This document shows positions 874 to 48,500 of a stretch of 64,000 bases of DNA, piece after piece. The DNA is taken from positions 1,474,559 to 1,538,558 of the forward strand of contig JBNZDD010013730.1 of assembly GCA_050575255.1 (NCBI GenBank), written 5' to 3'. Source of the stretch: Harriotta raleighana. Taxonomy: Eukaryota. Under the pieces are notes generated by a model, which was not told the DNA's origin, did not search any database, and saw nothing but the letters and a program-made list of their open reading frames with translations. Both the position numbers and the translations under genes were made by a program. Position 1 is the stretch's first letter. Each line of letters starts with the position of its first letter.

Positions 874-1018
874 CTTTCACGATGACTTTGAACCTTCGGG
901 AGTCATTGCCAGCCGCCGTGGTCACTACACACTCCCATATACCGCTGTCTTGGGGACCGATCCTGGGGAGCTTGAATTCCGAGGTGGTTATATTGCCTTG
1001 CATGATGGATTTAGTGGC
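874..1018 (-). CDS. TIE1: TIE1 exon 9 (Ig3 C-half)
   Basis: ATKSIMQG...[25 protein letters not shown]; 145 nt. Confidence 0.93.
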
Positions 1019-1569
1019 CTGACGCGTGCGAGGGAAAAAAAAACAGTTCCGAATCAATTGCTCAATCCTTAAAGTTAGAACGAAGGGCGGTTTCAAGTGT
1101 TTTCCCCCCCCTCCGTTGCACTGATCACAATAAAACAACCTTCGCTCTTCTGAAGAGGCCTAAAATGACCCAACGTGGATAGGAACACCGGGAACAACCC
1201 ACGACATTCTGATTAAAAACATGTCAGTCGTCTCTAATTACTTTCATGAGAAAGTATGTGTTTTTTTTTTCTTCTTTAGGGCTTATTAACATTATTATCG
1301 TTATCATTATTAACAAGCACGTGGAGTAAGGAAACTTGCCCAAGGTTTCAGCTCCTGCCTGGAATCGAACCCAGGTCTCTCGCTTTTAAGGCGAGCGCCC
1401 TGACCACTGAGCTACAGCAGTTACACGTCCAGAAATATGTTATGCTCTGCTTAAGACTTTCTAGAAGTGACTCTAGTGTAACGATGAGAGTGCACAACTC
1501 GCAGATAACTCAACTATGGCTTATTTTGCTCCACCACTCTCCCTTGTGACCCCCATTAAGTATCCGTCA

Positions 1570-1605
<36 letters not shown>

Positions 1606-7600: not shown

Positions 7601-10600
7601 TAACAAAGCTGACGTTCTCGCAAGACACCGCAAACAAAAACAACAACGGAATGACGCTTGCACAGCGCCTTTCACGTTGGGAGGACGTCCCAGGATGTTG
7701 GGAGGGCGTCCCAAGGCGTTGGACAGTCAATATTTCAGGCCCGAGCTGGGGTCGGGATCGGGGAGGGTGGAGGGAAAGGAGGGGATTTGGAGCGACCGAT
7801 GGGACCGTCGAAGAGGAGGTTCTTGAGGCAATCTCCAGCATAGGAATCAACCTAACATCTAGCATTGTGAGATCAATGATTTCAGCACATCTGGAGTCCC
7901 TGAAGCTCAGTGGTTAGAGCAGTCGCCTTACAAGCGAGGGAGCTGTGTTCAATACCAGGCAGGATGAAACCACGGGCAAGTTTCCTTGACTCCAGACATT
8001 TAATAATAATCCCCTCAAAGAAATAATGAATTGGTCTTGTCAATCACACGATTGTTTGTGAGTTTCGCCCACAACTATGCAGTCAATTCGCTTCACAATA
8101 TACTCTGTAAAGCGCTTTGAGGTGGCGTGATGACCCTAGATAACGTGTAAAAGCCCTGTATGAAATGAATGGATTATTGTTATTATTAAATGTTATTAAA
8201 ACGCCACATTAACTATCTACATATTAACCAGTCAGTACGCAACCTCTTGGAGTCAGCGCTTCAGTGTGAAACGGTGTGTACCAGCACGACCAACTCTCAA
8301 TAAATCAATGAACATACAACAGTTTGTGAGTGTCAGTGTATGCGTGTGTGTGTGTCTGTGTGCATGTGCGTATACATCGCCACATTTGTCAGCAAATAAT
8401 AGGGTAGCAAGAAATATCGTACTGTATATAGATTTACAAATCCGTGGATTGAGAGATTGGAATATAAATCTTACCTGAATCACTGTTAATAATTGTTAAA
8501 ACGTGAGCTTTCTCCGATTGCCGTGTTCCTTCACAGTAGTAGATTCCCACTTGCTCGTAGGGCTTGGTGAGGCCTTTAGCTCGGATCCCATTGTGCCTGC
8601 TGAGATCTTCCACATAATTGAAATTGACCTTTTCGACCTGAAATATTGTGTTGTCTTTGTGCATTTTAAGTTTGGGTTCATCGTACTGGCGTTCAGCAGA
8701 CAGGCAAGAGAGAGGAGTCTCGGTCGGAGAGGAATGGTGGAGGTCAGTGATCAGGTAGATGTCCAAAATAGCTCCTATATTGAGAGGACAAAAAAAATAA
8801 GATTGAAACGGTCTTAATAATCGTACGCCTTCCAATTGGAATCCCTTTAATCGACACACCTTTGAGTGTTATTGAGTCGTTTCGTTCTGGTCGGATCCTA
8901 TTCTCAACAGCGAGGTGTCAAACGCATTTAAATGCAAAGATGAGAGCCTTTCACGAGTTCACAACCGATTCCGTGCGTTCAGTTCCTTAAAGCATTTCAC
9001 AAAGCTTGGTCACAGTAAAGTAGTCGTTTGACAAATCATCCACAAGGGGTTAAGTTTTGTTCCATCAGTGAAAATGTTTTTTTGGGAGGGAACGTAAATA
9101 ACGAGAAAAAATAGTTTCAGCGATATACCATTTAAATTAAAACAAGAGCTTTATAATAGAGCTTGACAATTCTCAGCTTGAAGGTAATTGTTTTCGAGTA
9201 CTGTGTAGTGTTATCTTACGCTGCTCGTGAAAAAGGCAACATTTTAGAATTTTTTTTGGTTTATTGTTGGATTTCATAGTGAAAGATTAGAATTTTTTTT
9301 TAAAAAAGTCGTCAGAATAATCACTTTGTCAAGGGAGAACTTTGATTCGTGTGATAAAATTCCACGAGAGTTTTTAATGCTTGAAACTCCTAGGATGAAT
9401 GGCATTGAGTTGGCATTGAAAATTAGCTAGCAATTAAGATGATCGTAAATGCTCTCAGTGGGCAAAAAAAANNNNNNNNNNNNNNNNNNNNNNNNNNNNN
9501 NNNNNNNNNNNNNNNNNNNNNNNNNNNNNNNNNNNNNNNNNNNNNNNNNNNNNNNNNNNNNNNNNNNNNNNNNNNNNNNNNNNNNNNNNNNNNNNNNNNN
9601 NNNNNNNNNNNNNNNNNNNNNNNNNNNNNNNNNNNNNNNNNNNNNNNNNNNNNNNNNNNNNNNNNNNNNNNNNNNNNNNNNNNNNNNNNNNNNNNNNNNN
9701 NNNNNNNNNNNNNNNNNNNNNNNNNNNNNNNGATCGACTTCAAGATCCTCATCCTCNNNNNNNNNNNNNNNNNNNNNNNNNNNNNNNNNNNNNNNNNNNN
9801 NNNNNNNNNNNNNNNNNNNNNNNNNNNNNNNNNNNNNNNNNNNNNNNNNNNNNNNNNNNNNNNNNNNNNNNNNNNNNNNNNNNNNNNNNNNNNNNNNNNN
9901 NNNNNNNNNNNNNNNNNNNNNNNNNNNNNNNNNNNNNNNNNNNNNNNNNNNNNNNNNNNNNNNNNNNNNNGGGTCCTAAACCAACTGTCCAGCGCCTTGG
10001 GATGTCCTCCCGACATGAAACGCGCTCTATACATGCAATCTTGTTGTTGTTGTAGTATATAGAGTGAATGGTATCCATTAGCAAATAAATCGAAGGGAAG
10101 GGTTAAGGTGTAATTATTTTCTCAATTACTGAAAGTTTCCAGCCAAACTGAAACATCTTACCAAGATAATAGATTACACGATATCTGATTGATATTTCGA
10201 TGTCACCCACTGACTGTTCACTACGCCACATGGACTCACCAAATAATGAAACTTGGAAACTTATTTTCATTGGAAAAAAAAATTCAATGTTTTACAAGCG
10301 AGAAACCTGGGTTCAATTCCAGACACGATGAAAGTTTGGGCCAGTTTCCTCATTCCACACACGCCNTGAAAGTTTGGGCCAGTTTCCTCACTCCACACAC
10401 GCCTAATAATCCCTCAAAAAAAACAATCATAAATTGGTCATTTCAATCCACAACTGTGTGTGGGACACTGCTGTTCGCTGCCGTGTTCAGCCNAGAAATA
10501 TACAGTCAATTCACTTTACAGTACAGTATATTCTGTGAAGCGCTTTGAGAAGAAGACACAAAATGCGCTATATCAAATGCAAGGATTATTATTATTATTA

Positions 10601-25689: not shown

Positions 25690-28499
25690 GGGTCTGAGCA
25701 ACAGGGCTTGGTATCGATCCGTTAAGATAAACTTCAGACGGACGAAAGATCCGTTTGATTTTTTGAAGGGTCAAAGTGAGAACTTTATGAAAAACCCTTC
25801 TGTGATTTTTTTGAACCCCCCCCACCACCCCCCACCCCACTCCACCCCTTTACCCCCCTGAATGGAAACAACTAAATATAAAAGCGGGTTAGGGAAGGTC
25901 AAACCCAAATAAGAGGCCAGATTTATTGAGAGTCTGATTGAAACAAGAAGAGAGGGGAAATGGTCTCAATTGGGTGTAGATTTACTCTGGAATCAGAGAG
26001 AAAGATCAAAGTGGAATCAGTTCTGACTGGACGAGGAGTTACTGTCCTAGAAGCCTTCCTTAATCTCTGCCTCGTACAGGGATAAAAACTTTCTTCCTGT
26101 TTTCAAACTCCCAATCCCTGTCTCTATTTAACAGCGCTTTGGGACGTCCTCCCGACATAAAACGCTCGACACAAATGTACTTGTTGGGGTTTATTTTTTT
26201 CCTTTGCTGCCCCTCTCGCTTTCATTCGGTTTCTCACAACCCAGTCTCATTAGTCTTACAGTACGTGCCTTGGGTCGTCCGCCCGACATGAAAAGCGATA
26301 TACAAATGTAATTGTGTTGTTGTTGTTGTTGTTGTTGTTGTTGTGCTTGTGTGCTGCAACCTTAAGAGGCCGCAAAACTGGCAAAAGACCCTGATGTGTT
26401 TTCTTTACAAACTTCTTTTCAAACTGGCTTGTAATCCCTCCGAAAAAAGATTAAACTGGTCACTTCAATCCACGGCTGTTCGTGGGACACAACTGGGCGC
26501 AATTGGCTGCCATGTTTCCCCCCTCCCACCCCCCCCCCACCCCCCCCAACCCCCTCAAATATGCAGTGAATTGAATTTACAGCCACGTCCTGTGAAGCGC
26601 TTGGAAACGTCTAGAAGACGTAATGAGGCTCTATATCAAATGCAAGGATTATCATCATTATTCTTATTATATTGTTATTGTCCAATCTACTAATAAAGAT
26701 GTGGGGTGGGGGGTGGGAGTGGGTGGGTGGGGGGCGTACATTGCATTGTCAGGAGTTGCTGGGCTCTTCGTGTCAGACAGTAAACCAAACCAAACTCCCT
26801 TCTGCCTGNNNNNNNNNNNNNNNNNNNNNNNNNNNNNNNNNNNNNNNNNNNNNNNNNNNNNNNNNNNNNNNNNNNNNNNNNNNNNNNNNNGGGGGGGGGG
26901 GGAATGCAGATCAATTGATAACCTTTGATATCTAAACCTTTTTCAAAAAAAACACACACTACCCAGGAAATAGAAAAGGCTTCATGGGTGGGGGAGGGTT
27001 GAGTTTTACCTTCACACACGCACACACACACACACACACACTGAAGAGCATTGAAGTGGGAGCTAAGAACAGGTAGAGCAGGATTCGAAAGAGAACTTAT
27101 GGAGCACAGGAATATTTTAAACAAAGAGGGAATGAAGGACAGGGAAAAGGAATATGTCAAGCCTAAGCCATGGTGACTTTCAGGTCATGTTCCCTGATGT
27201 TTGGCTTAGTGTTGGTTGGATGAAAACATGTTGAGCAGTTTAGAGAGCGTCGGGAAACGACTCAAACAGAAGGGAAACTGGTAGAAAGCAAAGCCTTCGC
27301 AATGCCACAAGCCTAAAACAACTCAAGAGACCGATCCTGATAAAAACCCTTCCACCTGATCACGATGAACAGTGGAATGGCTGCCAGCGTCTGGTCTGGG
27401 GGAAAGAAGAAATGCGAAGACCGACGCGAACGAATAAAAATCTGGGATTGGTTAAACATCGCGACTGAATATCCCGCCCACACTATAGGATGCCTCCTCA
27501 GGTTTGGTGTATGATTGTACCAAGTTGTAAAACCACTCGTTGTGGCGAGGGCCACACATTGTCTCTCCAGAAGAACCACGTTCACTGTTTATCCGAGCCG
27601 ACTTCTGGCTGTGATCCTGAAGAACTTTTGAAATCTAATCTGACCAGCGCTGAAATAACATCTAGGAAAACATTTGGCTGGAATCTGCAGCCCCACTGCC
27701 TTCAAACGATGAATTTTATTACCTCGTAACTACCAGAGAGGGTGCCTTTTATTTTCAAAAACGCAGACAGGAAAGGAAGTTGTTAGTTCTTTTGTCAGTC
27801 AAGTTTCTGAGGCCGCCCAGCCAGTGGCTTAGTTTACTATTAATATGTGTTCATACTCAAGATTATCGTAGCTCTGTTGGGTAACGCTTAACAGGCTGCT
27901 GGTATGCATTGATAAAACAATGACAACTTGCATTTATATAGTGTCCTTCACGCAGAGCACAGTCTCAGAGCACTTGAAGTTACAGTATGATGATATTAAC
28001 CTAGTCAAGTAACTTTCTGGTCACCAGCAATCAGGACTGTTCAGGCCACACCTAGAGTTATCTTTCTTCACAGATATCCCACAATTTTAATATAATATAA
28101 TATAATATAATATAATATAATAAACCTAATACCCTTACATCACCAGCAATATTTTCGATATCAGGACAAGTAGCAGAATTGTTACATAAGGAAAATAAAA
28201 ACAAACAATAACAAATCAACTATCAGTTATTGTCATCGCCACGATTGTTAAGACAGTATTATTAACAATGTAATATTACTGCTATTCCCCGCTGTGTTAC
28301 TGTTCAGGATTATGACAATCACGCTGTTGACATTTATGTTCATTTACTGAAAACATTAGTACGTATTGTGGGCAGATTGTTGGACTGAAATCCATGTCAA
28401 TAATCAACGACAATCATTTTTATTATACGTGGACACGTTGACAATGACTCGACTTGTAAAAAAATGCAGATGAACAGAAAAATTCCCTTCCGACGAAGC

Positions 28500-28601
28500 A
28501 TGCGATGGGCAGTGTGTCACAATGGTGGGACAGTGGTGGCATTTTGTGTGGGTTTCCTGATGACTGTTCTACACGCTGGGCCTTGTGAAGTAAGCAATGA
28601 G
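28500..28601 (+). CDS. C1orf210: LRR gene exon 1 (signal peptide and first LRRNT Cys)
   Basis: MRWAVCHNGGTVVAFCVGFLMTVLHAGPCEVSNE, GAG|gtgagt donor, phase 0. Confidence 0.7.
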
Positions 28602-28639
28602 GTGAGTCTCAGCTTATATTAACCAACATCGGGACGTTT

Positions 28640-28672
<33 letters not shown>

Positions 28673-31600
28673 GATCGATCAAGCTTATGTCACCCCCCAC
28701 CCCTCCCCCGAGGAACGAAGGTCAATGCAAAGGGGAAGCATGAAAGTAAATTGACTCTGTACAAACGAGCTGACACGACCAACTTACAAGTTGCATTGTG
28801 CGCCATTATACGTGTTTGCCTGCAAACGCAGTCACTGCACTTTAGAGTAAAAATCCTGTGAAGCGCTTTGAGATGACATGTTAACACGCGATATCNATTG
28901 ATTGATTGATTGATTGATTGATTGATCGATCAAGCTTATGTCCCCCCCCCCCCCCCCTCCCCCGAGGAACGAAGGTCAATGCAAAGGGGAAGCATGAAAG
29001 TAAATTGATTCTGTACAAACGAGCTGACACGACCAACTTACAAGTTGCATTGTGCGCCATTATACGTGTTTGCCTGCAAACGCAGTCACTGCACTTTAGA
29101 GTAAAAATCCTGTGAAGCGCTTTGAGATGACATGTTAACACGCGATATCAAATGCACAGTTGTAATCTGAAAACCTCTCAGGAAGGTCGCTGAAGTTTGA
29201 GATGGAACAAATCAGCCATTTGAGAACGGACAGATTGTCAGGCTTGGAAATGAACACAGATTATTTTGTTGTAATAATAATGATAATGATGACTATTTCT
29301 GTCTAAATGTCATTTTTCCTATGGCCAGTAGTGGTCAGATTAAAGTTTAATCTGCCACTGAAATTTGTAATTTACCTCTCCGACCTGCTGTCTTCCTATC
29401 AGTCCGCCCCNAGATTGTCAGGCTTGGAAATGAACACAGATTATTTTGTTGTAATAATAATAATAATGATTAATATTTCTGTCTAAACCTCATTTTTCCT
29501 ATGGCCAGTAGTGGTCAGATTAAAATTTAATCTGCCACTGAAATTTGTAATTTACCTCTCCGACCTGCTGTCTCCCTATCAGTCTGCCCACACCCTCCGT
29601 TCAGCAGACTCAGGCCTGCTCCGCGTCCACCGCCCTAACCCCCCAACCATCGGTGGTCGGGCTTTCAGCCTCTCTGCCCCCCCTCCCCCCACACTCACAC
29701 ACACACAGCCTCTCTGCCCCCACACTCTGGAACTCCATCCCGCAGTCCCTCCGCCTTGCTTCCTCCCTTTCCTCCTTCGAGGCCGGTCTCAAGACCTTCC
29801 TCTTCGACCGAGCCTTCGGCTCCCCCCCTGACTCTTCCCCCTCTCCCTACTCTCCTTCCNAACCCCCCAACCATCGGTGGCCGGGCTTTCAGCCTCTCTG
29901 CCCCCACACTCTGGAACTCCATCCCGCAGTCCCTCCGCCTTGCTTCCTCCCTTTCCTCCTTCGAGGCCGGTCTCAAGACCTTCCTCTTCGACCGAGCCTT
30001 CAGCTCCACCCCTGACTCTTCCCCACCTCTCCCCACTCTCCTTCTCCCTCCCCCTATTCCCCCACCCTCCCTCACCCCCGCTCGGGTCTCGCCCTGATTG
30101 TTCAGCGCCTTGGGACGTGCTCCCGACGTGAAAGGCGCTCTATCAATGTCATTTTGTTGTGGTGGTGGTTGTTGTGATCAGGACTCTGGATGTATTTCCC
30201 AGGGGACAGCAAACTGCAGTGGGAGAGAACTTCTTAACATCCCAAAAGATCTTCCCGACAGTTTGTCAAGCCTGGATTTGTCATACAATCGGGTGAACTT
30301 GTCTGATCCTGATAACCGCAGACAACTGCAGGCATTCAGACAGCTGACCTTCCTCAAGCTTTCAAACAATCGCATCCCATCCCTTGACCCTGGGATCTTC
30401 ACCGACTCGAAGACGCTAAAGCTGTTAGACCTGGGTCACAACGCCATGGCTTCACTCCACCCTGGTACCTTCCGAGGTCTTTCCAGTTTGCGCATCCTGA
30501 TTCTGAGAGACAACAGGATAGAGCGACTGACTCCTGAGCTACTGAGCGATATGTACGATCTGCGGTCGCTGGACCTCGCTAACAACAGACTGACCACGGT
30601 GACGACCGGCTTGCTGCGGAGATTCAGTGCGAGTGCACTGCGAGAGGTCCACCTTCAGGGTAACCCCTGGGTATGCGACTGCTCACTGTACCCACTGCAG
30701 CAATGGCTGCGGACTCTAAATGGTAAGTCACACATTTCCATTCGTGTCCTTCGGCCTGAGAGCTCGCAGACGCTCGCAGAGAGGACTGTAGACCTGACAT
30801 CGCAAACCCACGCCTATTCATCCGAAGCCAGTCCAAAAGCATGAGGGGTTTAGTAGATATCTGCGGCCTCCAAAACAGGGGACACTCCTGTAAGTCAGTG
30901 GTCAGTTAGAGCACTTGCCTTACAAGCCTGAGACCTGTGTTCGAATCCAGGCAGGTCAGGGCGAAACCTAGGGCAAGTTTCCTTACTACACACACACACA
31001 CACACACACACACACCAATTCACTTTACAATACAAAATATGAAGCACTTAGAGACGTCGATAAGATGTGAAAAGTACTATATCAAATGCAAGGCTTATAA
31101 TATTAATCTGAAGGTAGTCCAAAGCATTACAACAATCAGAGAATTAACAAAACACAAAATCCCAAATAGTCAGTAGTCATTTATAGACGAGTCTCGCCTC
31201 ACGACCCAGAAGTCACACTCAAAGCACAGTGCGGAATTGTCAAGCAAGAGACAACCTTGCTCAGAATTCCCTCTATACTCACTCTCAGCCGAATTTACAC
31301 CAAAGAATTATCTTGTCAGGTCCATCCAAGGATATCTGAGCTCGTGAGTGCAGCCATATACTATATACATACACTCGCAATCCTGTCCTGTCACAGCTGT
31401 GGCAGATGAAGAAACAAAACGACCAAGTATGTTTTTGTCAAAAGCATAAATAACCCTTAGAACTGAGACACTTGTTCATAATGCGAACTGAACGGAGAGT
31501 GGATATGCTTGTGTTTATCCCAATGATTTCTCCACATTTTGCCTCCTTTATCGTTTCATAAATACCCTGCCCTTTTACTTCCGCATTACTTTCTCATTGG

Positions 31601-33016
31601 CTGTTTGTTTGCAAGGCCGCCAGCTGTGTTACAAATTGACGTTCTTAACCAATGTTGTCTTTCAAAAGTAAATTAAAAAGGTATGCGTTCGAATTTTTTG
31701 AAGCTTTTTAATCCCCCCACACCCCCTCCCCCCCCCCCCCACCAAAAAAAAATAATATTCGAATCTTATTAATCTTATTGATTTATCTTATTGTTCGGTT
31801 GTCGGTAGCTAGAAGGTGGAAAGAAGTAAATAATTAAAACAGCATTGTGAAAGTGGCTTGTGTGCTTCTGTCAGACTCCACAGAAGATATAGAGTGTGGC
31901 CACTCTCCCCACCTCCAGGGTAGAAACATACAGACAGCGTTGTGTCCAGTCACTGGTGCGGGAATCAACAAGGGAAATCGACTTCCTCGGGCGCTAAACG
32001 AATCGCAAACTGCAACCCCAGAGACCTCCAATGCGAGTAAGTGTTGCTGAGAGTGAAACGGGATCAACAAAACCCGTCAATGATTCGCGGCCATTAACCG
32101 CCTCTGTTGATCATTTCAATAAATAATGCTTTTTTTTAAACAAAAAAATAAGGCTTTGCTTAATGATTAATCCCCTCCCACCCGTCCCCCCCACCCCCTC
32201 CCGGCTGGTAAAATTGAATAGTTAATCATTAATTGTTTTTAAAAACAGTGATTACGAACTGATTTTTAATAAATAAAATCAATTTTCCTTAGCGTTGTTT
32301 AATTTTGTTGTTGTTATAGTTGTTGTTGTTGTTGTTGTTGATATGACATTACAGTACTGGGACTTGGTGAGATTCAATATTTTTGTGGCTGAGGAGATAG
32401 CACACGTGCATTTGTCAGCCTGGGTACTGAATGATTTCACCCCCCCCCCNNNNNNNNNNNNNNNNNNNNNNNNNNNNNNNNNNNNNNNNNNNNNNNNNNN
32501 NNNNNNNNNNNNNNNNNNNNNNNNNNNNNNNNNNNNNNNACTAGTGTGCTATCGACAAGGGAACCTTTGACGTCGTCCCGAGTGTAAATTTTGTGTTGTG
32601 TTGCTTCGAGGTTGTTTTAACCACCGTCTTGTTGATTGCAAAACTTTCCAGCCTCGCCATCGCCGCCGCCGGCGAAAAGTGGGACGACTCTGCGAGTTCT
32701 GCTGGCGGTCCTCCTCACTGCCATTTTGCTCTCTGCGCTGATCGTAATCGCCGCCAAATGCAAACTCTTTCACAAGTACCTGGCCAGCTACAGCCACCAA
32801 CTGCTGCCAGAGCAAGACAACTGCTCGGCGATCGTAACCATCGCCAGCGGTGGAGAAACGCACGGAATTGGGGATCAGGTGATGTTTCCCTCTCCGGGCT
32901 TAGATGAGGATGATGGCTACATCGAGGACAATTACATTCAGACGGAGTTAAAAGAGGAGGATGACGACGACGGTGGCGAAGAGGACGACGTTGACGAGCT
33001 GCACATTTCCATCTAG
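28500..33016 (+). CDS. C1orf210: LRR type I membrane protein, C1orf210 (TEMP) orthologue / LRRC19-like, about 382 aa (394 aa from the in-frame ATG at 28464)
   Basis: Exons 28500-28601, 30203-30722, 31875-32036 and 32652-33016 join in frame: signal peptide, LRRNT, 5 LRRs, LRRCT (GNPWVCDC), TM helix, tail AAKC..SYSHQLL..DEDDGYIEDNYI typical of C1orf210/LRRC19. Position next to TIE1 matches human C1orf210. Confidence 0.85.
29540..30160 (+). mobile_element. L2-clade LINE 3' end (ORF2 C-terminus and tail), partly duplicated by the assembly
   Basis: Encodes YLSDLL..LRS..GGRAFSLSAPTLWNSIPQSLRLASSLSSFEAGLKTFLFDRAF; tail gcgccttgggacgt..gtgaaaggcgctctat..ttgttgt. Confidence 0.85.
30203..30722 (+). 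CDS. C1orf210: LRR gene exon 2 (LRR array)
   Basis: ttcccag acceptor; LxxLxLxxN repeats; G|gtaagt donor. Confidence 0.92.
31875..32036 (+). CDS. C1orf210: LRR gene exon 3 (LRRCT completion and stalk)
   Basis: DSTEDIECGHSPHLQGRNI...C; cag/gtaagt; phase 1-1. Confidence 0.82.
32652..33016 (+). CDS. C1orf210: LRR gene last exon (TM helix and acidic cytoplasmic tail)
   Basis: VLLAVLLTAILLSALIVIAAKC...DDGYIEDNYIQ...ELHISI*. Confidence 0.92.
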
Positions 33017-36423: not shown

Positions 36424-36532
36424 AGTCAGTCAGTCAGTCAGTGCGTGAGTGAGTGAGTGAGTGAGTCAATCAGTGAGTGAGTGAGTGAGTCAATCAGTGA
36501 GTGAGTGAGTGAGTGAATCAATCAGTGAGTGA
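36424..36532 (+). repeat. (CAGT)n/(GAGT)n tetranucleotide repeat immediately 5' of the AP-1 mu ATG
   Basis: Directly visible; ends about 5 nt before the ATG at 36538. Confidence 0.9.
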
Positions 36533-36537
36533 GCATC

Positions 36538-36579
36538 ATGTCAGCTTCTGCAGTGTTTGTCCTGGATCTGAAAGGGAAG
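36538..36579 (+). CDS. ap1m3: AP-1 mu exon 1
   Basis: [17 protein letters not shown]|gtaaga. Confidence 0.93.
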
Positions 36580-39500
36580 GTAAGAAAAGGTTGGGAGTTG
36601 CTCCAATAATGTTTGTTACACACACACACACGGACATAAGGTAACACACAGACACAGACAAGGACAGTCTTTCATTACCTGGGCTCTGCAGGTGAGCTGA
36701 AACATTGCCTCAATGACTTGGGGCTGGAGGTGGGGGGGAGTTGAAGGGGAGATACCTGGAGAAGTCACCCAACTTTTGGCTTGGAGACAGTGAGAGAGAA
36801 GGGGTGGGCGGGTGGGGGGGAGAGAAGAGAGAGAGAGAGAGAGAGAGGAGATTCTCATGGGGATCTATATACTGTAGAAAGTGGTTTCATTCCCCCCCCC
36901 CAGTGGACAAGCCACCTGGAACTGAAATCAGCCTGTCTTGTCTTTGCTCCCGGTTGTAACCCTCACACTCCTCCAGCCCGGTGTGGACTTTCATGGCTTT
37001 GTTAGTTTCCTGGTTTCCCGATGAGGGTCGCGGATTCCTCAGCGGTGAGAGCGCGCTCGACCCTTACGGCGAGAGACCTGGGTTCGGTTCCCGGCAGGTT
37101 CAAGGGAGAAACCTTGGGCGAGTTTGTTTTCCTTTGCTCCGCAAGCCTGATCACAATCCCTCACCAAAAGAAATAAAATGAATCGGGGCGTCATCTCAAT
37201 CCGCGACTGTTGTTGGGGGGGTGGGCGGGGGGGAGGGGGGGAAACGCTGCTGTGCGCAATTGGCTGCCGCGTTTCGCCTACCAAATATGCAGTCAGTTCA
37301 CTTTACAGTATATTCTGTGAAGCGCTTTTGGGGCGTCTAGAAAACGTGAAGTGCGCTGTATCAAACGCAAGGATTATTTTTTTTACTATCGTGCCCTTGA
37401 ACTAATCCCTCCCCCAACCTCAGGCTGACACAGAAATCACTGCCTGCTGATCACAAACTAGTTACTGTGCTTAGGGTTTTAGTGATAGCGGTGGTGGTGG
37501 GGTGGGGGGTGTGAGGGGGGGTGGAAGGAGTGGTGGAGGTATAGAGAGTGGGGACTAAAGAGAGTTCTTACAGTAAGTGGAGACTGTAATATATATAATT
37601 TAAATATAATATATTATAATATAATATATAATTATTATTTTTTATTATTATAACAATATAGACCAAAAATAGCCTTTGGGGCTGAAATGTTATTGTATGA
37701 ATCCAACATATCTGATCTGTGAGAAGAGCACTACATATACTATATATATATACATATCTATATACATATATATATACACACACACACGTAACTAGATGTT
37801 GTTGTTGAATGATTGTCGCCTCACTTCGCTGAAAGATCATGAGATGCCCAGCTTGTTAGGTTCACCTCTCCACACCTTGTCAAGAGACGACTCTGCTCAC
37901 AATGACCGAGACACAAAATTAGGGCTCCGTAAGGGCCCAACAATTCTGTGACACTCGAAGCATTTGTTTCAGGGTGTATTTGAATTTTTTTGTAACATAT
38001 TTATATGATGTACTGTATAAACCTTACCTGACTCACTCTTAACACTCTCTGCCTTCCACTCTTTGGAGCTCACATCCCACAGTTCCCTTCACTCGCTGCC
38101 TCCCTTGGATCCTTCAAAGCCCAACTCAAGACCCTCCATTTCGACCCTCTAACCTCTCTGCCACCTTCCCCCCACTGCCATCCCAACCCCCCCCCCCCCC
38201 CCCCACACCAACCCCCACACTCCTCCCCCCCCAGCCCTTCCCCGTGCTCACTTCCTGACCACTGACTGTTCAGAGCCTTGGGACTTCCTCCTGACGTGAA
38301 AGTGCAATTTTGTTTTTGTTGTTGAAGAAGTGTGAAATGTCTGAGGCTGATATAATCATAATAGTAATTACTGTATAATAATAACTATCATCATAATAAT
38401 ACTTGCATTTGATACAGCTCCTTAATCACTTCTTCGCGACGTCAGTCTCGAAATAATGCCCTAGAGTCTTGGGCCTTCCTCCCGATGTGAAAGGCGCTCT
38501 AGAAATGTAATTTTGTTGTTTTTGTGGTGATTGTAGAGGTGGGCAGTTTTGGTGACGGACTTTCATAGAATCATACAATCTTACAGCACAAAGGGAGGCC
38601 ATTCGACCCATCAAGTCTGTCCCGGCTCTTTAAAAAGAGCAATTTAATCCCACTCCCCAGCTCTCTCTCTCTCCCCGTAACCTCGCAAACCCGTCCTCCA
38701 TAAATAAATGTCCACCTCTCTTTTAAAAGTTGTTATCGAATCAGCCTCCACCACCTTTTCAGGCAATGCATTCCAGATTCGAACAACCCGCTGAGTGAAA
38801 ACCTCCCCTCTGCTTCATTTTGAAACTATTTTAAATCTGTGACCACGAGTCACTGATGCTCCCACCAGTGGAGACAGTTTTTCCCTATCTATTCTGTCGA
38901 ATGACCTTACAAATCTCCATTGGGTCTCCTCGCAACCTTCTCTGTTCCAATGAGAATAAACCTAGACTTTCCTCGTAGCTGAAGTCCCTCATTCCTGGTA
39001 CCATCCTGGTAAATCTCCTCTGCACCCTTTCCAATGCCTTAACATCCTTCCTAAAGTCTGGTGACCAGAATTGTTCACAGTACTCCAGCTTTGTTTCTTC
39101 GATTGGTTTTGCTTGCTGGATTGATTGTGTTTCTCGTCAGGTCCTGATATGTAAAAATTACATGGGTGATGTGGACATGAGTGAAATCGATCACTTCCTG
39201 CCCATACTGATGCAGCAGGAGGAGGATGGACCTGGTTCGCCAATCTTCACCCACGGACCTGTTCACTTCCTTTGGATAAGACACAGCAACCTGTATTGTA
39301 TCCTTTCCTATGTCAGCTCCGCTGGGAGAAACCATCCTGTAGCTCAGTGGTTAGAGCACTCACTCGCCTTACAAGTGTGAGACCTGTGTTCGAATCACAG
39401 GCAGGTCAGGGCGAGACTTTGGGTGAGTTTCCTTACTCCACACACGCACGCCTAATAATAATAATAATAATAATAATAATCCCTAAAAAAAAACAACACA

Positions 39501-42500
39501 ATAATAAAATTGATCATTTCAATCCACCACTCTCTGTGGGGCACGCTGCTGTGCGCAATTGGCTGCTGCGTTTCGCCCACAAAATAGACAGTCAATTCAC
39601 TTTACAGTGTACTCTGTGCAGCGCTTTGAGACACAGTCTAGAAGATGTGAAAAGCGCTGTGTCAAATTCAAGGATTAGTATTGTTACTATGGCAGGGAGT
39701 GGTGGAAGAGGGAGAGAGAGTCTCTGTGAGCTGATGCTCTATTCCACGCTTTGCTGTGGTGGGAACTCTGCTGTGCGACTGAATTTGGACACGTCCGTGA
39801 CGGGATAATTGAGAACATTTCTTAACAATGTGCCTCATTGCGTAAGATTTTTTCCTACATACGTACGTACGCACACATGGAACTCTCAGTCTGCTTTGGA
39901 CACGCTTAAGCCGGGGTGATGAGATGCATGTGTTATATCCCCCAGCTGACCAAAACAAAAAAGATTTTCATGTAATTCACGGTTTCTTTATTCACCCACA
40001 CACACATATAAAAGCCACGGATACATTGAAATTATTAGCATGCAGCTAACTAACAGCTGTTATGCCTCACTAAAGCTTAAGCCTCACATATTAAGTTGCT
40101 CATAAAAAAATAAGCGAAACAATATTTATGGCGTGCATTTTATTGAATGCCGTCTGAATGAATTTCGACGCAAAATAGCTTCCAAACATCCTTATTGATG
40201 AGCTGATTGAAGCAGTAACTTCATTGAGAGCAAATGAATTACTGTACAGTATTTATTCTTCGAATCGTTCGAAAGGCTTCGAGGGTAAACGGTATAGTTT
40301 CGGGATGACGAACACTGTTGAGGGAAGCCTAAACCTTCGGTTTAGAATTGCGATTGATTATTTTCTAAGGATTGTTTTCTTGAATCTAACCCACACAGTG
40401 GTGGCGGTGACAAAGAAAAATGGAAATGCAGCCTTAGTTTTTTCATTCTTGTACAAAATTATTCAGGTGAGTCTTTTCACTCATTTTCACATGTTCTCCA
40501 AACTTTTTCTGCTCACAATTCAATTACTCCCAAACCGAAAACTGCTTACTGATGTGCTCTTATTGAATCAGAGCTGGATCAGACTGTCTTCGTCTCCCTT
40601 CTCTCTCTCTCTCTCTCTCTCTCTTTGAACTACACTCCCCAGACTCATGGATTGACTTCGCTCATTTAGTCATAAAGTAATCCTTGCATTTGACAGAGCG
40701 CTTTTCACTCCTTCTAGACGCCTCAAAGCGCTTCCCAGAACATACCGCAAAGTGAAATATTTGTGGGCAGCCAATTGCGCATCGCGGGATCCCACAAACA
40801 GTCGTGGGTTGAGTGACCAAATGATTTTTTTTTTTAAAAAAGGATTATTATCACCAGAAAAGCGATCCGCCAATCTGTAGCTCGGTGGTTAGAGCACTCG
40901 CCTTTCAAGCGAGAGATCCGAGTTCGATGCCAGGCAGGACGAAACCTTGGGCGAGTTCCCTTACCCCACACGCCTGATAATAACCCCTCTAAAAAGAAAA
41001 CCAAGAAGAAATTGGTGATTTTCAATCCGCAACTGTGTTTTTGGGGTCACTGCTGTGCGCAATCGGCTGCTGTGTTTCGCCCTAGATATACAGTCAATTC
41101 ACTTTACAGTATATTCTGTGAAGTGACTTGAGTCGTCCGCCGCCATATCAAATGCAAGGATTCTTATCATTATTCTCATTATTCTCACCGCTGGATGAAC
41201 GGAGGATAACGTCATTGATGCTGCCTCACTGAGCAACGAGAAGAAATTCTGCTCCCAGAATGATAGCTCAACCCTATCTTTACAACAGTGAGAGGTGTGA
41301 CTGTACAAGGATACAGTCATTATTTTTTCCCCACACTTATTTCTCCCCTCGTTCTCTGAAGGCATTTTGCTCAATTTAATTTTCATTTCTGCGGAGTTCA
41401 GGGGTTAGTAACCCTGCGGTAACAACACCATTAAACTATTCGTGTGTCTGAGCCTTGGCAGTTGGCGTTGACAGGTTAATCCAGTCCGAGAGCCTCACAG
41501 TTCCCTGTCCTGTCTTCCGCGCGCAAAGTAATCACCCCAGCATTTTACGGCAGGACCTTCGGATTGAGTGGGAACTTTGGTTATTTGTTTCGCTCGCTCA
41601 CCTGAGATCCTCGCTCACCTGAGATCCTCTCTCACCTGAGGTACATCAGCCCTTCCTGCCCGACCTCGGAGCTCCCCTCTTCCTGGATGCCCTTAAAACG
41701 AAAAAAAAACACCACGTAAACATTTGTACCGTTTGCAGGTTTTCACTGAGTATTTCCAGGAGGTCGAAGAGGAAAGCATTCGGGATAACTTTGTCATTGT
41801 CTACGAGCTTTTGGACGAGGTGATGGATTACGGATTTCCGCAGACGACAGACAGTAAGATTCTGCAGGAGTAAGTGTCGATCGAGCGCACCCAAAAGGAT
41901 AGTTTCTTTTTAACCCAAGTAAAGAAACTCGCCCAGAGGTTTCACCCTGCCTGGAATGGAACCCGGGTCTCTCTCGCTTGTAAGGCGAGTGCTCTAACCA
42001 CTAATATAGATAGATGGATGTTATTATTATTATTATTATTATTATTATACAATGGAGAGCGAGGCAACCCTCCAAACATCCTCTCTTGTGCGCGATTGGC
42101 TTCAACGACGTTGAAAGCTCCTTTCGTTGGACAAATGTAACTCCCTCTCCCTTGGGACCTCCCTTCGCTGATACCATTGGCGATGCTGTTCACCCCGTGT
42201 GGGCCAACATTGCCCCCTGTTGGTGCGTCCCTAGCACAGCAACAACAAAACAGCGTCCCCAGAAAAGAGAGCGTGTAACAGTACTTACTGTCCATTCATA
42301 CCTCCCGGTAAAAAACACACACCCAGCCACTTTTAACCACCGTCACAGTTGTCACTACAGGCAGACACCTCCTCCTGGGTACCAACATACAGGTTTGTGA
42401 CCCCCCCCAACCCCCTACCCCCACCCCCAACCCCTCCCAACCCCCCCCATATACCTGCCTGTGTGCAATTCCTTAGTTCTTTACTTTAACGAGGGCGTAA

Positions 42501-45500
42501 TTCAGCGAACGGCTGCATAACTTGATGGATGAATCCCGTTTCTGTGAACGCCGCGGCGAAGTGCCATACGGTGTGTATGGTGTGCGCCCCCACAATCCCA
42601 GGCTCCAGCTCGGAGAACACCGGCCCCCATCACTCGAGGAAGCCCACCGATGGACAGTCAGTCGACTCCACCAGTATACTCTGTGGAGCGCTTTGAGGCT
42701 TCACTCTGGAAGACGTGAGGGACGCCTACATCCAATGCGAGGATGATTATTACAGTATTATGACTATTAAGCTCCCATCTCACGGTATCTCCCTACCCAG
42801 AGGAAGTTCTGTGTCCCACACTCACTGTGAGCAGCTATGTTTATGCCATGTTCGCCCCCCCCCACCCCCCCCATCCCTGCCACCCATACCCAGGATGCAG
42901 CTCTGTGCTTTTGACCCTCATATCCAACGTGTAATGTATTGTACAGACATTTGCCAGGGTAACGGTGTCTTACTAAACACTGAAGCTTGAGAAAAACTGG
43001 GCCTTTCTTGGGCCATGACTCTGGACTTGAACAAACAAACCCTCAAGGAAGCACGAAAACCCTCGCAAATCAACTTGCCCCTCGCCACGTCCAAATACCC
43101 GAAAGGGGCCTAATTCGCAAGTAATTACTGTCACGAGGATCGACTGGTTTATTTTATTTTTTTAAAAGCCAAGTGAAAACACAACGCAGTGTAGTCATCA
43201 TCGCTCTGCAGCTCGCGTGTCTCATTACCGTAAATCCGCGGCTTAAAAATTCCCATTCCTGTTCACTAGGCCGTGTTGAGAGAGTGGGATGGGGGGGGGG
43301 GGGGGGGGGGGGGGGAGGGGGTAAATCTCAGTAGCTGTTGTGCACCTGCTCCTCATTACAGCTCTTTTTGGACGAGTCGTCCCATAGGGTTGTCACCACC
43401 GCAGCAAACTGTAAACAATGTTATTTTCATCAAGTTCAATCAGCCCTTCGACATTCAGCAAATTGACACAAAGCACTGTTAGAAATGGTTTAAATTGCAG
43501 CTGTTTCACCCCAGTCGTCCCCNGTTTAACATCTCGATCACACGCACAGACAAATGGTTCCATTATTATTTGGCGTCTCCCCTCCAAATGATTTCCCCCC
43601 CCCCCCCACCTCCCCGATAGGAACATCTTTCTCTTGACTAAATTCTAAAGGCTGATGCTTGAACAGCGACTGACAGCTTGAGAAACTCTCCTGGGTATGG
43701 GATAGGAGGCCTCGAAACCCAGTGTACCTCAGATACGTTTCAAAAGTATAACATTTGCTCAGTGGTTAGAGCGCTCTCATCTGGCGAGCCAGAGGCCGCT
43801 GGCTTCGAGCCCCAGGCACCTTGGGCAAGTTTCCTTACTCCACACGCACACACGCAACAAACACACACGCACGCACACACACGCACACGCACGTGGCTAA
43901 TAATAATCCCTCCAAAAAAAAAAANGCTTCGAGCCCCAGGCACCTTGGGCAAGTTTCCTTACTCCACACGCACACACGCAACAAACACACACGCACGCAC
44001 ACACACGCACACGCGCGTGGCTAATAATAATCCCTCCAAAAAAATAATAAAATTGGTCATTTCAATCCGTGACTGTTTGTGGTGGGGGGGGGGCGGGGGG
44101 AGGGGGGACAGGGGGGACGTCGCTGTGTACAATTGGCTGCCGCGTTTCGCCCACAAATATACAGAACAGTCAAATTCACTTCACAGTATCGTTCCGGGAA
44201 ACCCTTTCGAGACGTCTAGGAAGACACGAAACGCTCTACATCAAACGCAAGGATTATGATTATTATGATGTTTCTTCTTCTGATGATGATTATTATTGAC
44301 GTGGATCTCCCATCTCAAATCGTTTCCCCAGATCACATTGCCGACAAGTGATTTGCAAGCGCAGTTTGTTGACGCTTGATCTCACAAAGAGTGTCTTGTC
44401 ACAAACTGCATCGCTCGTTTGCGGAGGTTAACGCGATGTTTCTGCCTTGTACCCAGGCCCGTAGCTGAAGGCGAGTTGATGTAATNGCTTGATCTCACAA
44501 AGAGTGTCTTGTCACAAACTGCATCGCTCGTTTGCGCAGTTAACGCGATGTTTCTGCCTTGTACCCAGGCCCGTAGCTGAAGGCGAGTTGACGTAAGCGG
44601 ATGCAATTTCGCCTGCCAAACAGCCCTGCCCACTTGCCCAGTTAACGACGCTTCCATTTTTTCCCCAAAACCCTCTCCCATCAGGTACATCATTCAACAG
44701 GGACACAAGCTGGAGATCGGAGCCCCGCGTCCCCCAGCCACCCTCACAAACGCAGTGTCGTGGCGATCGGAGGGTGTGAAGTACAGAAGGAACGAGGTTT
44801 TCATCGATTTGATCGAATCGGTCAATTTACTGGTGAGCGGGTTTTGCTTGTTGAAGGTGAGCGAGAGTTCGTGTCGCTTGGGGATTTAGCTGTCGAATCC
44901 CCCCCACATATCAGCGCTGTGTGTCTCTTAGCTCACCCAGGCATACAGCATTGTACGTGCTTCACGATAGCAGGCATAGCCTGGAACCTGGAGCCTCACA
45001 CTTTCAGCAGCTCTCAAAAAGAAATCTCGCGTTACTCCGACGGTATAAATATCGAGGGTAAATTGACGGTAATTAACGAGAATGCAGTACAGCCATCATT
45101 CTCGAAGCTTGTGTGTCCTCATTAACTGTGACTCACTCCACAGCTAAACATCTCTTTGCTGCTGTTTCACCTTCAATTTCAACAAGCCTTACAAGCTTAC
45201 GGCATCTGCTTGTCCCACTCCCCAGCTATAATTTTGCTACATGCATGGCAGGGGCGGGAAGGGGGGGGGAGAGAGAGAAAGAGTATTCAAATTAATGTAG
45301 CTACAATCTCCTCAAAAGATAGGCAGCGAAATTCTTCATTTGCAACGACGCTGCCTCTGTAGGCGTGTGCAATCCTCTGGTAGTTAGTGTCAGTGCGCGC
45401 GGAGAAAGAACTGGGAGTCAGGATTACATTCAATAGCGATGTCACAATATATCATTGCTTCACGTCCTTCTGGGGCGACGTCCACTCATTCGCTTGGTTT

Positions 45501-48500
45501 AAAGGAATTTGGCAACTTGATTCCACCGGAGTAAAAGCAATGTTTTTGCTGATCTAGGTGAGTGCGAGTGGCAGTGTCCTGAAGAGCGAGGTGGTCGGAA
45601 ATGTGAAGTTGAAGGTAATCCTGTCGGGAATGCCGGAATTGCGACTTGGACTCAATGACAAAGTGCTGTTTGAGATCTCCGGGCGTAAGTAACAGCCAGA
45701 ACGAATTTATTTCCATTTTTAACACTAGTCCTGAGAGAGATTGGATTGGATTGGGTGGGTACAGTGGATTTGAACGCGGCCTATTTTCGTGACTGGGTTT
45801 TCCTGGTGTGAACAGAGGCCGGTATGATCAAACAACTCAGCGGTGAGAGCACTCACCTCACAAGCGAGAGACCTGGGTTCGATTCCAGGCGGGTCTGGGC
45901 GAAACCTTGGGCGAGTTTCCTTCCTCCCCCGCGTCTGATGATAATCCCTCAAGGAAAGAAACAATAATAAATTGGTCAGTTCAATCCACGACTGTTTGTG
46001 GGACCCTGCTGTGTTTTGCCCTCAGGTATACAGTCAATTCACTCCACTGTATATTCCGTGAAGCGCTTTTGAGACGTCTAGAAGACGTGAGAAGCGTTAG
46101 ACCAAATGCAAGGATTATTAATATTAATATTATTATACAGTAGCAACAACTACTAATACAATTTCAGTCTCAGTCACAGAGAGCAATTATTTGCCAAGAA
46201 TGCGGAGGTCCCTAAAGTAATAGTCAGTGTGNAGTCTCAGTCACAGAGAGCAATTATTTGCCAAGAATGCGGAGGTCCCTAAAGCAACAGTCAGTGTGTC
46301 TCGGCTTCCACGATGCCTTGAACAGTTTTTTCTATCTTTCTTTCTTTCTTTTCATTCACAGGGGACAAGAGTAAATCTGTGGAGNAGCAATTATTTGCCA
46401 AGAATGCGGAGGTCCCTAAAGTAATAGTCAGTGTGTCTCGGCTTCCACGATGCCTTGAACAGTTTTTTCTATCTTTCTTTCTTTTCATTCACAGGGGACA
46501 AGAGTAAATCTGTGGAACTGGAAGACGTGAAGTTTCATCAATGCGTGCGTTTGTCTCGCTTTGAGAATGATCGAACTATTTCCTTCATTCCACCAGATGG
46601 AGAGTTTGAGCTGATGTCTTACCGGCTGTACACTCAGGTACTTGGCAGCCTCGGATGCCAAGTGGGTAAATCCGAGACGTAACTGAATGTGTATTAATAA
46701 TAAATCCTTATCATAATCTTTGCTGGGCACAATTCGCTTCTCTGTGCGCTTTAGGTGAAGAGCACTTTAGGGTAAATTGCTTTTCAGATCATTATTAGCT
46801 ATTAAAACAACTTGAAATAATTAACAAGTAGCGTTTTGCTCTCCTAGTCCAACACAGTCAACAGACAGTAAATTCCTGTGCAATATTCAGTGGGATGAGG
46901 AAGGTTGGCACATTGCGAGAGACGGAACGGACGCAAAGAATTATCGTTCGACTGGATTGCTTTCGCTCCAGCTCGAGTTTTCTAAATTAGATTAATTTTT
47001 TTTAAAGCCTGTGATGTCTCTGTCTCTGTCTGTAAAATGTCACATGAATATTCAACAACACCATCTGTTTTGCAGGTGAAGCCTTTAATATGGATCGAGT
47101 CAGTGATCGAGAAGTATTCGCACAGCCGAGTGGAAATGATGGTGAAAGTAGGCAATTCTGTAAACGCTAGCGCTAGCGGATATTTAGCGAATGCTTTAAA
47201 TTGTGCGTCACAGAAAAATCTGTTCCTTGCGGAGGGTGGGATGGGGGCAAAAAAAACGACCTTTCGTGACTTGCCCCGGTTTCGCTGAACCTGTCCTGTC
47301 TGTCTGTACGTAATGAATGCTTCCCTTTTGCGTCAAATTTCAACTTTCCTCTGTGTTTCAAAAACAACACGAACAAACAAACAAAACACGAATTCCTCTA
47401 AATTCAGGCGAAGAGTCAATTCAAACACCGCTCGACAGCAAACAACGTGGAGATCTGTGTTCCTGTCCCGAGCGACGCTGACACGCCCAAGTTCAAGACC
47501 AGCACGGGCAGCGCAAAATGGCTCCCGGAGAAAAGTGTGGTCATGTGGTCAATCAAGTCTTTCCCCGTGAGTAATCCAGCGGATCTACACCCTCCCGCCT
47601 GCTGTGGGGAACGCAGAACGCTGTCCAGCATCGTGTGTGGCACGTGTGACGCCCCGGAGAGCTGGTACCCTCTGTTTACACCCACCCACCCACCCCCTGG
47701 TTCCTCTCTCCTCACAAACGTTACCCGTTGCTTTCGCTCCACCGGGTCTGGCCTCCTCCTTGTCGTCGTCCGTCCCCCCCCGTCACCCCCCCCGTCCCCC
47801 GTCCCCCTCCACCCTGTGTGTCTGTGTGTGGGGTGGGGGGTGTGTGTGTGTGTGCATATGTGTATATGTGTGTGTGCGTATGCGTGTGTGGTGTGTGTGT
47901 GTATAGTGTGTGTGTGTGTGTGTACGTACACATGTACACACCCAGTGCCTTGGGATACCCTCCCCAGTGTGAAAGGCACTTTGCAAATGTAAATTTGTTG
48001 TTGCTGTTTGTGGATGAGGTAAGGTTGGCTTAGTCTGTCTACTGACTGGGAATGAATGCTTTACTGTGCTGTACAACTCTATATAAAGGCGGTTGTTGTT
48101 GTTGTTGTTTGTCGTTGTGGTTCTGCCTCTCACTTTTCTGTGCTTTCCTAGGGTGGAAAGGAGTATCTGATGCGAGCTCACTTTAATCTCCCGAGTGTGG
48201 AGGGTGACGTGGAGGCAAAGCGCCCGATTACTGTGAAGTTCGAAATCCCCTACTTCACAGTCTCCGGAATCCAGGTCTGCCCTCCCCTCGCCCGGACACA
48301 CAAACCCAACAGCAAACACTCAGCCCCTTTCAGCGAACACAACGCAAACACACAGTCAAATTCGCCCTCTGTGTATCTGTTCTGCGAAGGGCCTTTGAGA
48401 CGTCGGTCAGACGTGAAAAGCCTAAAGACGGGTCAAAATGCAAGGATTAGAATCATTACTATTGCTATTATGAAGGCTCGTTGACCCGGTAAATTTAGAA

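Follow-up and report, generated by a model that had tools for sequence, protein, structure and literature searches.

The C1orf210/TEMP gene of the chimaera Harriotta raleighana encodes a leucine-rich repeat protein with a predicted protease site in front of its membrane stub

The gene beside TIE1 in the chimaera Harriotta raleighana is the orthologue of human C1orf210/TEMP, and its predicted product consists, from N to C terminus, of a signal peptide, five leucine-rich repeats (LRRs) with their caps, a stalk, a transmembrane (TM) helix and a PF15176 tail. It is an ordinary orthologue, already annotated in a related chimaera, and the LRR form, far from being special to Harriotta, is what many non-mammalian vertebrates usually have. 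New here are a conserved RxxR site before the TM helix and its relation to the positions at which short forms of the protein start. Judged from the sequences, a protease is likely to cut the LRR head off, leaving a stub similar in size to the human protein, and the head appears to have been lost in several vertebrate lineages separately.

The window analysed is a stretch of 64,000 nucleotides, to which all positions refer. The gene has four coding exons, and the junctions proposed in the first-pass annotation (28601/30203, 30722/31875 and 32036/32652) proved sound, with GT-AG ends at all three introns, phases 0, 1 and 1, and an open in-frame join without internal stop:

28500..28601, + strand: coding exon 1, predicted signal peptide and first LRRNT Cys, ending in a phase-0 GT donor
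30203..30722, + strand: coding exon 2, rest of the LRRNT, five LRRs and first half of the LRRCT (NPWxCxC), phase 0 to 1
31875..32036, + strand: coding exon 3, second half of the LRRCT, RLPR, and stalk with two N-glycosylation sequons, phase 1 to 1
31979..31990, + strand: RLPR, predicted protease site of the convertase type (RxxR) between LRRCT and stalk, with putative cleavage judged from position and conservation
32652..33016, + strand: coding exon 4, juxtamembrane segment, TM helix, cytoplasmic tail and stop (PF15176)
32696..32755, + strand: predicted TM helix, matching helix 268-304 in the Callorhinchus milii model
32903..32938, + strand: acidic-aromatic tail motif DG[FY]IEDxYI, common to TEMP and LRRC19

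All four exons map in order onto the C. milii protein (NP_001279848 / AFK11171, accession types that presumably derive from mRNA), with 71% identity over 382 columns for the whole protein; RefSeq labels the C. milii protein a 'precursor'. Further in-frame ATGs lie upstream in exon 1 at 28464 and 28470, but residues 1-33 of the C. milii protein align to exon 1 with Met1 paired to the ATG at 28500 and not to that at 28464, so that the likely product has 382 rather than 394 residues. In exon 2, Pfam recognises LRR_8 (E 1.6e-24) and, weakly, LRRNT, the repeats being five canonical LxxLxLxxNxL units, and in exon 4 it recognises LRR19-TM (PF15176) at 38.4 bits against a cut-off of 27. Intron 3 holds a stretch of 90 Ns (32450-32539), and given the match to C. 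milii no hidden exon is needed there. An artefact of assembly or gene fusion was rejected in view of the colinear C. milii protein and the many long orthologues; so was a short isoform starting at an internal Met in exon 3, as this exon has no Met in Harriotta.

A first structure model of the C. milii protein, built from 53 mixed sequences, did not resolve the LRRCT, whereas a model from a 44-sequence alignment without teleosts and frogs did. An N-terminal helix spans residues 7-23, the part encoded by exon 2 takes an LRR fold at high pLDDT, and the RxxR site stands at the start of a low-confidence stalk, directly after the folded LRRCT. The stalk is short, Ser/Thr-rich, poorly conserved and predicted to be disordered, and none of the proteins scored has a Cys in it (57 entered, of which 2 could not be anchored). 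With its hydrophobic N-terminal helix and an ectodomain of about 240 residues, the Harriotta protein would not have the type III topology of mammalian TEMP, which lacks a cleavable signal peptide and has a short lumenal N-terminus.

The gene order at the locus is CDC20-MPL-TIE1, the TEMP gene, AP1M, two copies of TMEM125 and a WD40/coiled-coil gene, which matches the order around human C1orf210. The TEMP gene lies between TIE1 and TMEM125, divergent from (head-to-head with) TIE1. The latter is identified by a lower PDB TIE2 score than that of its paralogue on contig C13638 and by its neighbours MPL and CDC20; its first exon was not located. The neighbouring features are:

764..8868, - strand: TIE1 ectodomain exons (Ig, EGF), in a gene that runs past the left end of the window
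36529..48973, + strand: gene for an AP-1 mu-type adaptor subunit, between TEMP and TMEM125
53635..54360, - strand: TMEM125 copy A (open frame)
57550..58248, - strand: TMEM125 copy B (open frame), 60% identical to copy A

In an unrooted tree, in which short rows fill less than half of the columns, the Harriotta protein falls on the TEMP side of a branch supported at 100/100 that separates 40 from 19 rows, and forcing it together with C. milii TEMP into LRRC19 is rejected (p-AU 0.0065). The protein also has the PF15176 TM-tail with IEDNYI that characterises the TEMP orthogroup. Tree and neighbour genes thus bear out the orthology to C1orf210/TEMP, and the name LRRC19, which UniProt gives to the C. 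milii protein and to many bird models, was rejected on the strength of the tree and of a separate LRRC19. This second PF15176 locus of the Harriotta genome (G000:C13638:248769-254379(+)) was predicted to lie beside TEK and was found there, head-to-head with it; in the genome, the Pfam profile picked it up, whereas phmmer with the tail exon as query did not. The coiled-coil exons around it are presumably those of IFT74, and Pfam assigned no family to the four such exons tested. Its product is 80% identical to C. milii LRRC19. Like TEMP, LRRC19 (human NP_075052; C. milii XP_007890760) has a signal peptide, LRRs, a TM helix and a PF15176 tail, encoded in four coding exons of phases 0, 1 and 1, head-to-head with a TIE-family gene; unlike TEMP, it forms a clade of its own (100/100), and it lacks both an RxxR/RxLL site in the stalk and a hydrophobic C-terminal end.

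The LRR exons thus join the TM exon, and the protein neither groups with LRRC19 nor stands as the sole copy. The view of TIE1-C1orf210 and TEK-LRRC19 as ancient paralogous pairs holds, because LRRC19 exists as a gene of its own beside TEK and shares the intron phases; both pairs are head-to-head in Harriotta, and each clade contains chimaera and human members. As far as the sequences tell, the duplication predates the split between chimaeras and bony fish. The best 150 of 309 unnamed representatives included nothing recognisable as a homologue from lamprey or invertebrates. Tie1/Tek is listed, in an excerpt of the source, as a vertebrate two-gene subfamily (PMC4898815).

An RxxR lies 20-35 residues before the juxtamembrane Trp in 54 of the 55 long TEMP proteins with both LRRCT halves, a set drawn from 161 long TEMP-type proteins and not hand-picked, although birds dominate it and the counts are therefore not independent. 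Among 53 hand-picked complete models RxxR occurs in 44 (P1 at 27-31) and RxL[LTM] in the other nine, while either motif is found in 18% of shuffled segments. In long forms the RxxR lies about 26-31 residues before the TM helix; many teleosts have RxLL in its place, and LRRC19-type proteins have neither in the stalk (0/22). As expected of a convertase substrate, RxxR or RxLL is conserved at an exposed lumenal position, with the exceptions of paddlefish (four isoform models, neither motif) and reedfish (KKR instead). RxxR was seen in only 8 of 75 long models without recognisable exon 3, which are mostly partial bird models, and of the 30 models in which both LRRCT halves are missing, 6 are without the motif. 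At P2 the site is not that of an optimal furin substrate, as Lys or Arg is lacking there: Harriotta has RLPR and most others RFPR or RFAR, with RPRR or RFRR confined to monotremes and one unnamed protein. Arg-hydrophobic-Pro/Ala-Arg is a minimal rather than an optimal furin site.

LRR-bearing forms are already named TEMP in databases for sharks, teleosts, frogs, a lizard and birds, and an ESM Atlas cluster of such models has 248 members. The proposal that the LRR ectodomain is the ancestral state of TEMP is supported. Its loss does not look mammal-specific or single-step: six changes are required on the tree to explain the LRR-less rows, a single clade of these rows is rejected (p-AU 1.7e-35), and monotremes are intermediate. 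These losses are read from protein models. The short forms start 21-33 residues before the juxtamembrane Trp, about where the RxxR sits in the long ones, namely at 28-32 in placentals (n = 12), 26 in caecilians (n = 3), 30 in salamanders (n = 3), 33 in percomorph-type fishes (n = 3) and 21 in a skate (n = 1); no marsupial record was found among 120 of the 140 short matches. In echidna (220 aa) and platypus (227 aa) a signal-like N-terminus and an LRRCT relic are present without repeats, and their RPRR is in register with RFPR. Unnamed second copies in teleosts keep RHLL or RKLL without LRRs in four of six cases and lack it in two. Some short models can be artefacts, as the short C1orf210 models in UniRef (birds, crocodile, turtles, tuatara) include birds, which have long forms, and as Centroberyx has a second model of 243 aa.

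The explanation that I consider probable is that the chimaera protein is TEMP in its ancestral LRR form, working as a precursor open to cleavage, with the membrane stub as the product that is conserved. The signal peptide would drive type I insertion, and a furin-family convertase or a matriptase-like epithelial protease would cut after RLPR at the exposed site. These candidates follow from known specificities, by which the RxLL of teleosts would suit site-1 protease. The cut would set the LRR module free, and what stays in the membrane, a glycosylated stub of stalk, TM helix and tail, would correspond to mammalian TEMP. Since no disulfide is expected to tie the two together, the module would be shed or held only non-covalently. 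It may then act as a pro-piece or soluble decoy, and the conserved function would fall to the stub, probably in the early/recycling endosome traffic of epithelia via DG[FY]IEDNYI, as in mouse TEMP. If the stub is the part that works, lineages could lose the LRR exons again and again, with a new Met in the stalk giving rise to a type III protein. The term 'endosomal', as used in the first-pass annotation, would apply by analogy with the mouse short form only, which is found at Rab5/Rab4/Rab11 endosomes (PMC3901140). More tentatively, and with somewhat less than even confidence, TEMP may have begun as a protease-activated LRR pro-protein of which placentals, salamanders and caecilians, spiny-rayed fishes, skates and a teleost duplicate independently made the cleavage product the gene. 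Platypus and echidna would be half-way, with a signal peptide, an LRR relic and a sharpened furin site, and human C1orf210 would be the hard-wired, pre-cleaved form of LRRC19's lost twin.

Alternatively, the protein could be an intact innate receptor like LRRC19, with an ectodomain that binds microbial ligands, a tail that signals via TRAF2/6 and NF-kB, and an RxxR serving only for regulated shedding. It shares architecture, intron phases and tail motif with LRRC19, which excerpts of two papers report to bind flagellin and to act through TRAF2/6 (PMC10763354, PMC4742566), it combines a capped extracellular LRR domain with a single TM helix and no TIR domain, and expression of mouse TEMP is known from gut and kidney (PMC3901140). 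The LRR module is also kept from sharks to birds. Its exons are well conserved (about 40% from shark to bird), so that the module has a function of its own, which counts against the cleavable-precursor reading. However, the tail is conserved where the LRRs are gone, the site is retained after repeat loss, and teleost forms have lost the LRRCT cap. DG[FY]IEDxYI occurs in 53/53 long TEMP, 22/22 named short TEMP and 23/25 LRRC19-type proteins. A TRAF6 motif (PxExx[FWYDE]) is found in 2/53 long TEMP tails and a TRAF2 motif in 19/53, a weak test since both are patchy in LRRC19 too (7/25 and 6/25, respectively). With a conserved predicted protease site, a cysteine-free stalk and patchy TRAF motifs, the designation 'receptor' is not supported, and I regard this alternative as unlikely.

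A cleaved, two-chain receptor or cargo adaptor, in which the LRR module remains bound, non-covalently, to the stub or to a partner and picks up lumenal cargo that is then recycled through endosomes, seems to me less probable still. Such a form would account for a conserved site next to a conserved, capped LRR fold and for the mouse stub in recycling endosomes, and several well-known receptors remain associated after processing by convertases (TLR7/8, LRP1, Notch). However, a stalk so short, Ser/Thr-rich, poorly conserved, Cys-free and predicted to be disordered leaves little surface to hold the module. Finally, it is very improbable that the Arg motif is structural or incidental in an LRR protein that stays uncut and has an adhesion or auxiliary role (like AMIGO, TPBG or LRRC26), with several short forms being annotation errors or minor isoforms: the best PDB matches of the C. 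milii model are indeed AMIGO-1, Slit2 D2 and GPIb-alpha, which with TPBG and LRRC26/55 are the nearest neighbours in fold or features outside the family, some short models are demonstrably doubtful and paddlefish lacks the site, but the motif lies outside the folded domain at constant spacing from chimaera to platypus, and short forms of the same group (three each from caecilians, salamanders and percomorph-type fishes) start at matching positions.

Human C1orf210/TEMP (113 aa, P0269; mouse 2610528J11Rik) is the orthologue of the Harriotta protein by tree and neighbours. The TM helix, the SY.H segment and DG[FY]IEDNYI are common to both, as are a hydrophobic C-terminus and a lumenal stretch of about 30 residues that is glycosylated; Harriotta adds the signal peptide, the capped LRR module, the RxxR site and a longer tail insert, and would therefore be type I rather than type III. 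The C. milii 'TEMP precursor' and other LRR-bearing TEMP models are the same gene with the same architecture, with no difference in kind. Platelet GPV and vasorin, from which a protease removes the ectodomain near the membrane, also combine a capped LRR ectodomain, a short stalk, a protease site and a single TM helix, with unrelated tails, and no LRR membrane protein of this kind is known whose stub alone became the gene several times. Literature on LRR-bearing TEMP or its cleavage was not found among titles and opening parts of abstracts, in which subscription journals are sparsely covered, and a 2012 paper described TEMP orthologues in mammals only, with no known domain (PMC3901140). C1orf210 is a nearly unstudied human epithelial protein to which the vertebrate-wide paralogy with the gut receptor LRRC19 gives an origin, and the conserved cut site offers a direct test of the role of the lost ectodomain. 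If true, TEMP would offer a clean example of convergence, in which a type I precursor was turned more than once into a type III protein at a protease site and an intermediate still survives.

As to other tail signals, YxxPhi is present in 23/25 LRRC19 tails versus 4/53 long TEMP tails, and no dileucine sorting motif was found in the TEMP tails searched (0/53 and 0/22). The kinesin light-chain 'Y-acidic' motif is a weak lead for the role of IEDNYI, as the motifs described in an excerpt of the source are C-terminal (PMC6214655) whereas IEDNYI is internal. A kinesin role for IEDNYI would fit microtubule-dependent peripheral clustering (PMC3901140).

The C1orf210/TEMP gene of Harriotta raleighana forms one open frame from four exons with GT-AG ends and intron phases 0, 1 and 1; exon 2 is an LRR_8 match (Pfam, E 1.6e-24), exon 4 scores over the Pfam cut-off for PF15176 (LRR19-TM), and the product carries five canonical LRRs. 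Its closest named protein is the 'TEMP precursor' of Callorhinchus milii (NP_001279848/AFK11171, accession types derived from mRNA), which is covered in order by all four exons at an overall identity of 71%, and whose Met1 is matched by the ATG at 28500. As all four exons are colinear with this protein, a relative supports that the LRR exons are spliced to the transmembrane exon, and the in-frame junction read in the first-pass annotation holds. Near-identical direct duplicates around single N bases (e.g. 15963-17712 / 17714-19461 and 28647-28895 / 28898-29149) have the look of overlapping contigs that the assembly failed to merge; two of them are in intron 1 of the TEMP gene.

Features of the window
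28500-28601, 30203-30722, 31875-32036 and 32652-33016, forward strand: TEMP coding exons
31979-31990, forward strand: RLPR motif in TEMP exon 3, a predicted protease site (alignment)
36529-48973, forward strand: AP-1 mu-type adaptor gene, between TEMP and TMEM125
53635-54360 and 57550-58248, reverse strand: TMEM125, two intact single-exon tandem copies, 60% mutual identity

The gene order is CDC20, MPL and a TIE gene (all reverse), TEMP and the adaptor gene (both forward) and then, again reverse, both copies of TMEM125 followed by a WD40/coiled-coil gene. Leaving aside the adaptor gene and the second TMEM125 copy, this is the human C1orf210 neighbourhood. The adaptor gene, which is not known to have a counterpart between human C1orf210 and TMEM125, is probably the third mu1 paralogue of fish; the TMEM125 copies, given their identity of 60%, are a real duplication and not an assembly repeat. 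Exons of a Reeler-domain (FRRS1-like) gene and of glycogen debranching enzyme adjoin the WD40/coiled-coil gene (about 1574000-1597000 of the same contig, C13730, reverse strand; pieces L037-L039), a linkage whose members lie far apart on human chromosome 1.

In an unrooted 59-row TEMP/LRRC19 tree with hand-chosen rows, the window protein groups with human C1orf210 on the TEMP side of a 100/100 branch, which together with the neighbouring genes bears out the proposed orthology to C1orf210 beside TIE1. That the gene is LRRC19 itself is ruled out, both by forced placement (p-AU 0.0065) and by a separate LRRC19 on contig C13638. The latter is the second of two loci above the cut-off among six PF15176 matches listed for the genome (10 candidates scored), shares 80% identity with C. 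milii LRRC19, is split like TEMP into four coding exons (phases 0, 1 and 1), and stands head-to-head with a second TIE gene at about 55 kb. The TIE gene on C13638 matches Ig1 of PDB TIE2 (E 2e-13), where the window TIE gene has no match, and its FN3 region scores 97 bits against 66-68 bits, so that the former is TEK and the latter TIE1, the two genes of this vertebrate subfamily in the available text of PMC4898815. The pairs TIE1-C1orf210 and TEK-LRRC19 thus do appear to descend from an old duplication, as had been proposed, which predates the chimaera/human split since both sides of the tree contain chimaera and human. The architecture and intron phases shared by TEMP and LRRC19 indicate that the LRR ectodomain is the ancestral state.

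In the LRRC19 of C13638, a TAA (254377-254379; L016:4377-4379) replaces the conserved Tyr of IEDxYI, and the 13 residues by which C. milii LRRC19 extends past this Tyr are recognisable downstream of it; the stop is either a true truncation or an assembly error. The LRR exon of chimaera LRRC19 (C13638:250920-251286, L016:920-1286, and C. milii) is shorter than that of human LRRC19, with fewer repeats. Just past the 3' end of TEK lies a homeobox gene of the paired type whose end is OAR-like (C13638:152260-154371, L026:2260-4371, forward strand). It resembles DMBX1 and is possibly a paralogue of DMBX in the TEK-bearing copy of the duplicated region.

The LRR architecture of TEMP is already known to databases, as long models span sharks, teleosts, frogs, birds, reedfish, paddlefish and a lizard, and an Atlas cluster of the LRR-bearing form has 248 members; the gene in the window is an annotated orthologue, no new family. 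The one dedicated TEMP paper found (PMC3901140), in its available text, reports orthologues in mammals only, a motif common to TEMP and Lrrc19, and mouse TEMP at the plasma membrane and in Rab5/Rab4/Rab11 endosomes.

What is added here is a conserved arginine motif in the stalk of long TEMP, a predicted cut site, within exon 3 and downstream of the last LRRCT cysteine. At the position of RLPR, sharks and birds have RFPR, frogs RFAR or RFIR, a lizard RVPR and many teleosts RKLL. Among all 161 long TEMP-type proteins in the collection, RxxR occurs 20-35 residues before the juxtamembrane Trp in 54 of the 55 with both LRRCT halves, in 8 of the 75 models, for the most part incomplete ones from birds, where no exon 3 could be recognised, in 8 of the 30 with neither LRRCT half (16 have RxL[LTM], 6 no motif), and in one further protein. 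Either motif is present in 53/53 complete long models, picked by hand after the motif had been noticed, against 18% of shuffled segments; LRRC19-type proteins, unlike long TEMP, have neither (0/22). Paddlefish TEMP has no arginine motif at the stalk position, and reedfish has KKR instead. The AlphaFold model of C. milii TEMP gives a confident capped LRR domain up to about residue 230 and puts the motif where the low-confidence stalk begins; no stalk cysteine was found in the TEMP proteins scored.

On balance I favour, with some reserve, that long TEMP would be inserted as a type I precursor, in whose stalk a convertase or a protease resembling matriptase would make the cut. With nothing to tether it, the LRR module would then come free and serve as a pro-piece or decoy, while the remaining stub may work in epithelial endosomal recycling via DG[FY]IEDxYI, a motif kept in 53/53 long and 22/22 short TEMP and in 23/25 LRRC19-type proteins. 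An intact NF-kB receptor after the model of LRRC19, for which the available LRRC19 data of PMC10763354 and PMC4742566 could speak, is unlikely; the TRAF motifs are patchy in TEMP and LRRC19 alike and so discriminate weakly. With the predicted cut site conserved, the label 'receptor' needs revision. A protein cleaved into two chains that stay associated seems less likely still, and an uncleaved LRR protein of adhesion type, suggested by fold neighbours, is very improbable.

To judge from database protein models, the LRR-less form, as in human C1orf210, reaches beyond placentals: such models (RefSeq or UniRef) exist for one skate and for three taxa each of caecilians, salamanders and percomorph-type fishes. 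The ancestral LRR state inferred in the first-pass annotation stands, but its mammal-specific loss calls for revision. LRR-less rows require six changes on the tree, a count that alone does not separate gain from loss, and their placement in a single clade is rejected. Some short models are likely artefacts, since short UniRef models also occur for birds and reptiles whose relatives have long forms. In the open-access literature, searched mostly by title, I found no account of the paralogous pairing, of a cut site conserved in long TEMP, of repeated LRR loss or of a monotreme intermediate.

The caecilian, salamander, percomorph-type and skate short forms begin 21-33 residues before the juxtamembrane Trp, those of 12 placentals 28-32, and a long form cut after RxxR would retain 25-30. 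The TEMP models of echidna (220 aa) and platypus (227 aa) have a signal-like N-terminus and an LRRCT relic but no repeats, with RPRR in register with RFPR. Six unnamed LRR-less fish proteins (P0238, P0350, P0335, P0391, P0323 and P0381), which the tree places with TEMP, are probably a second teleost TEMP copy; their N-terminus is signal-like and followed by a short pro-piece, and 4/6 keep RHLL or RKLL.
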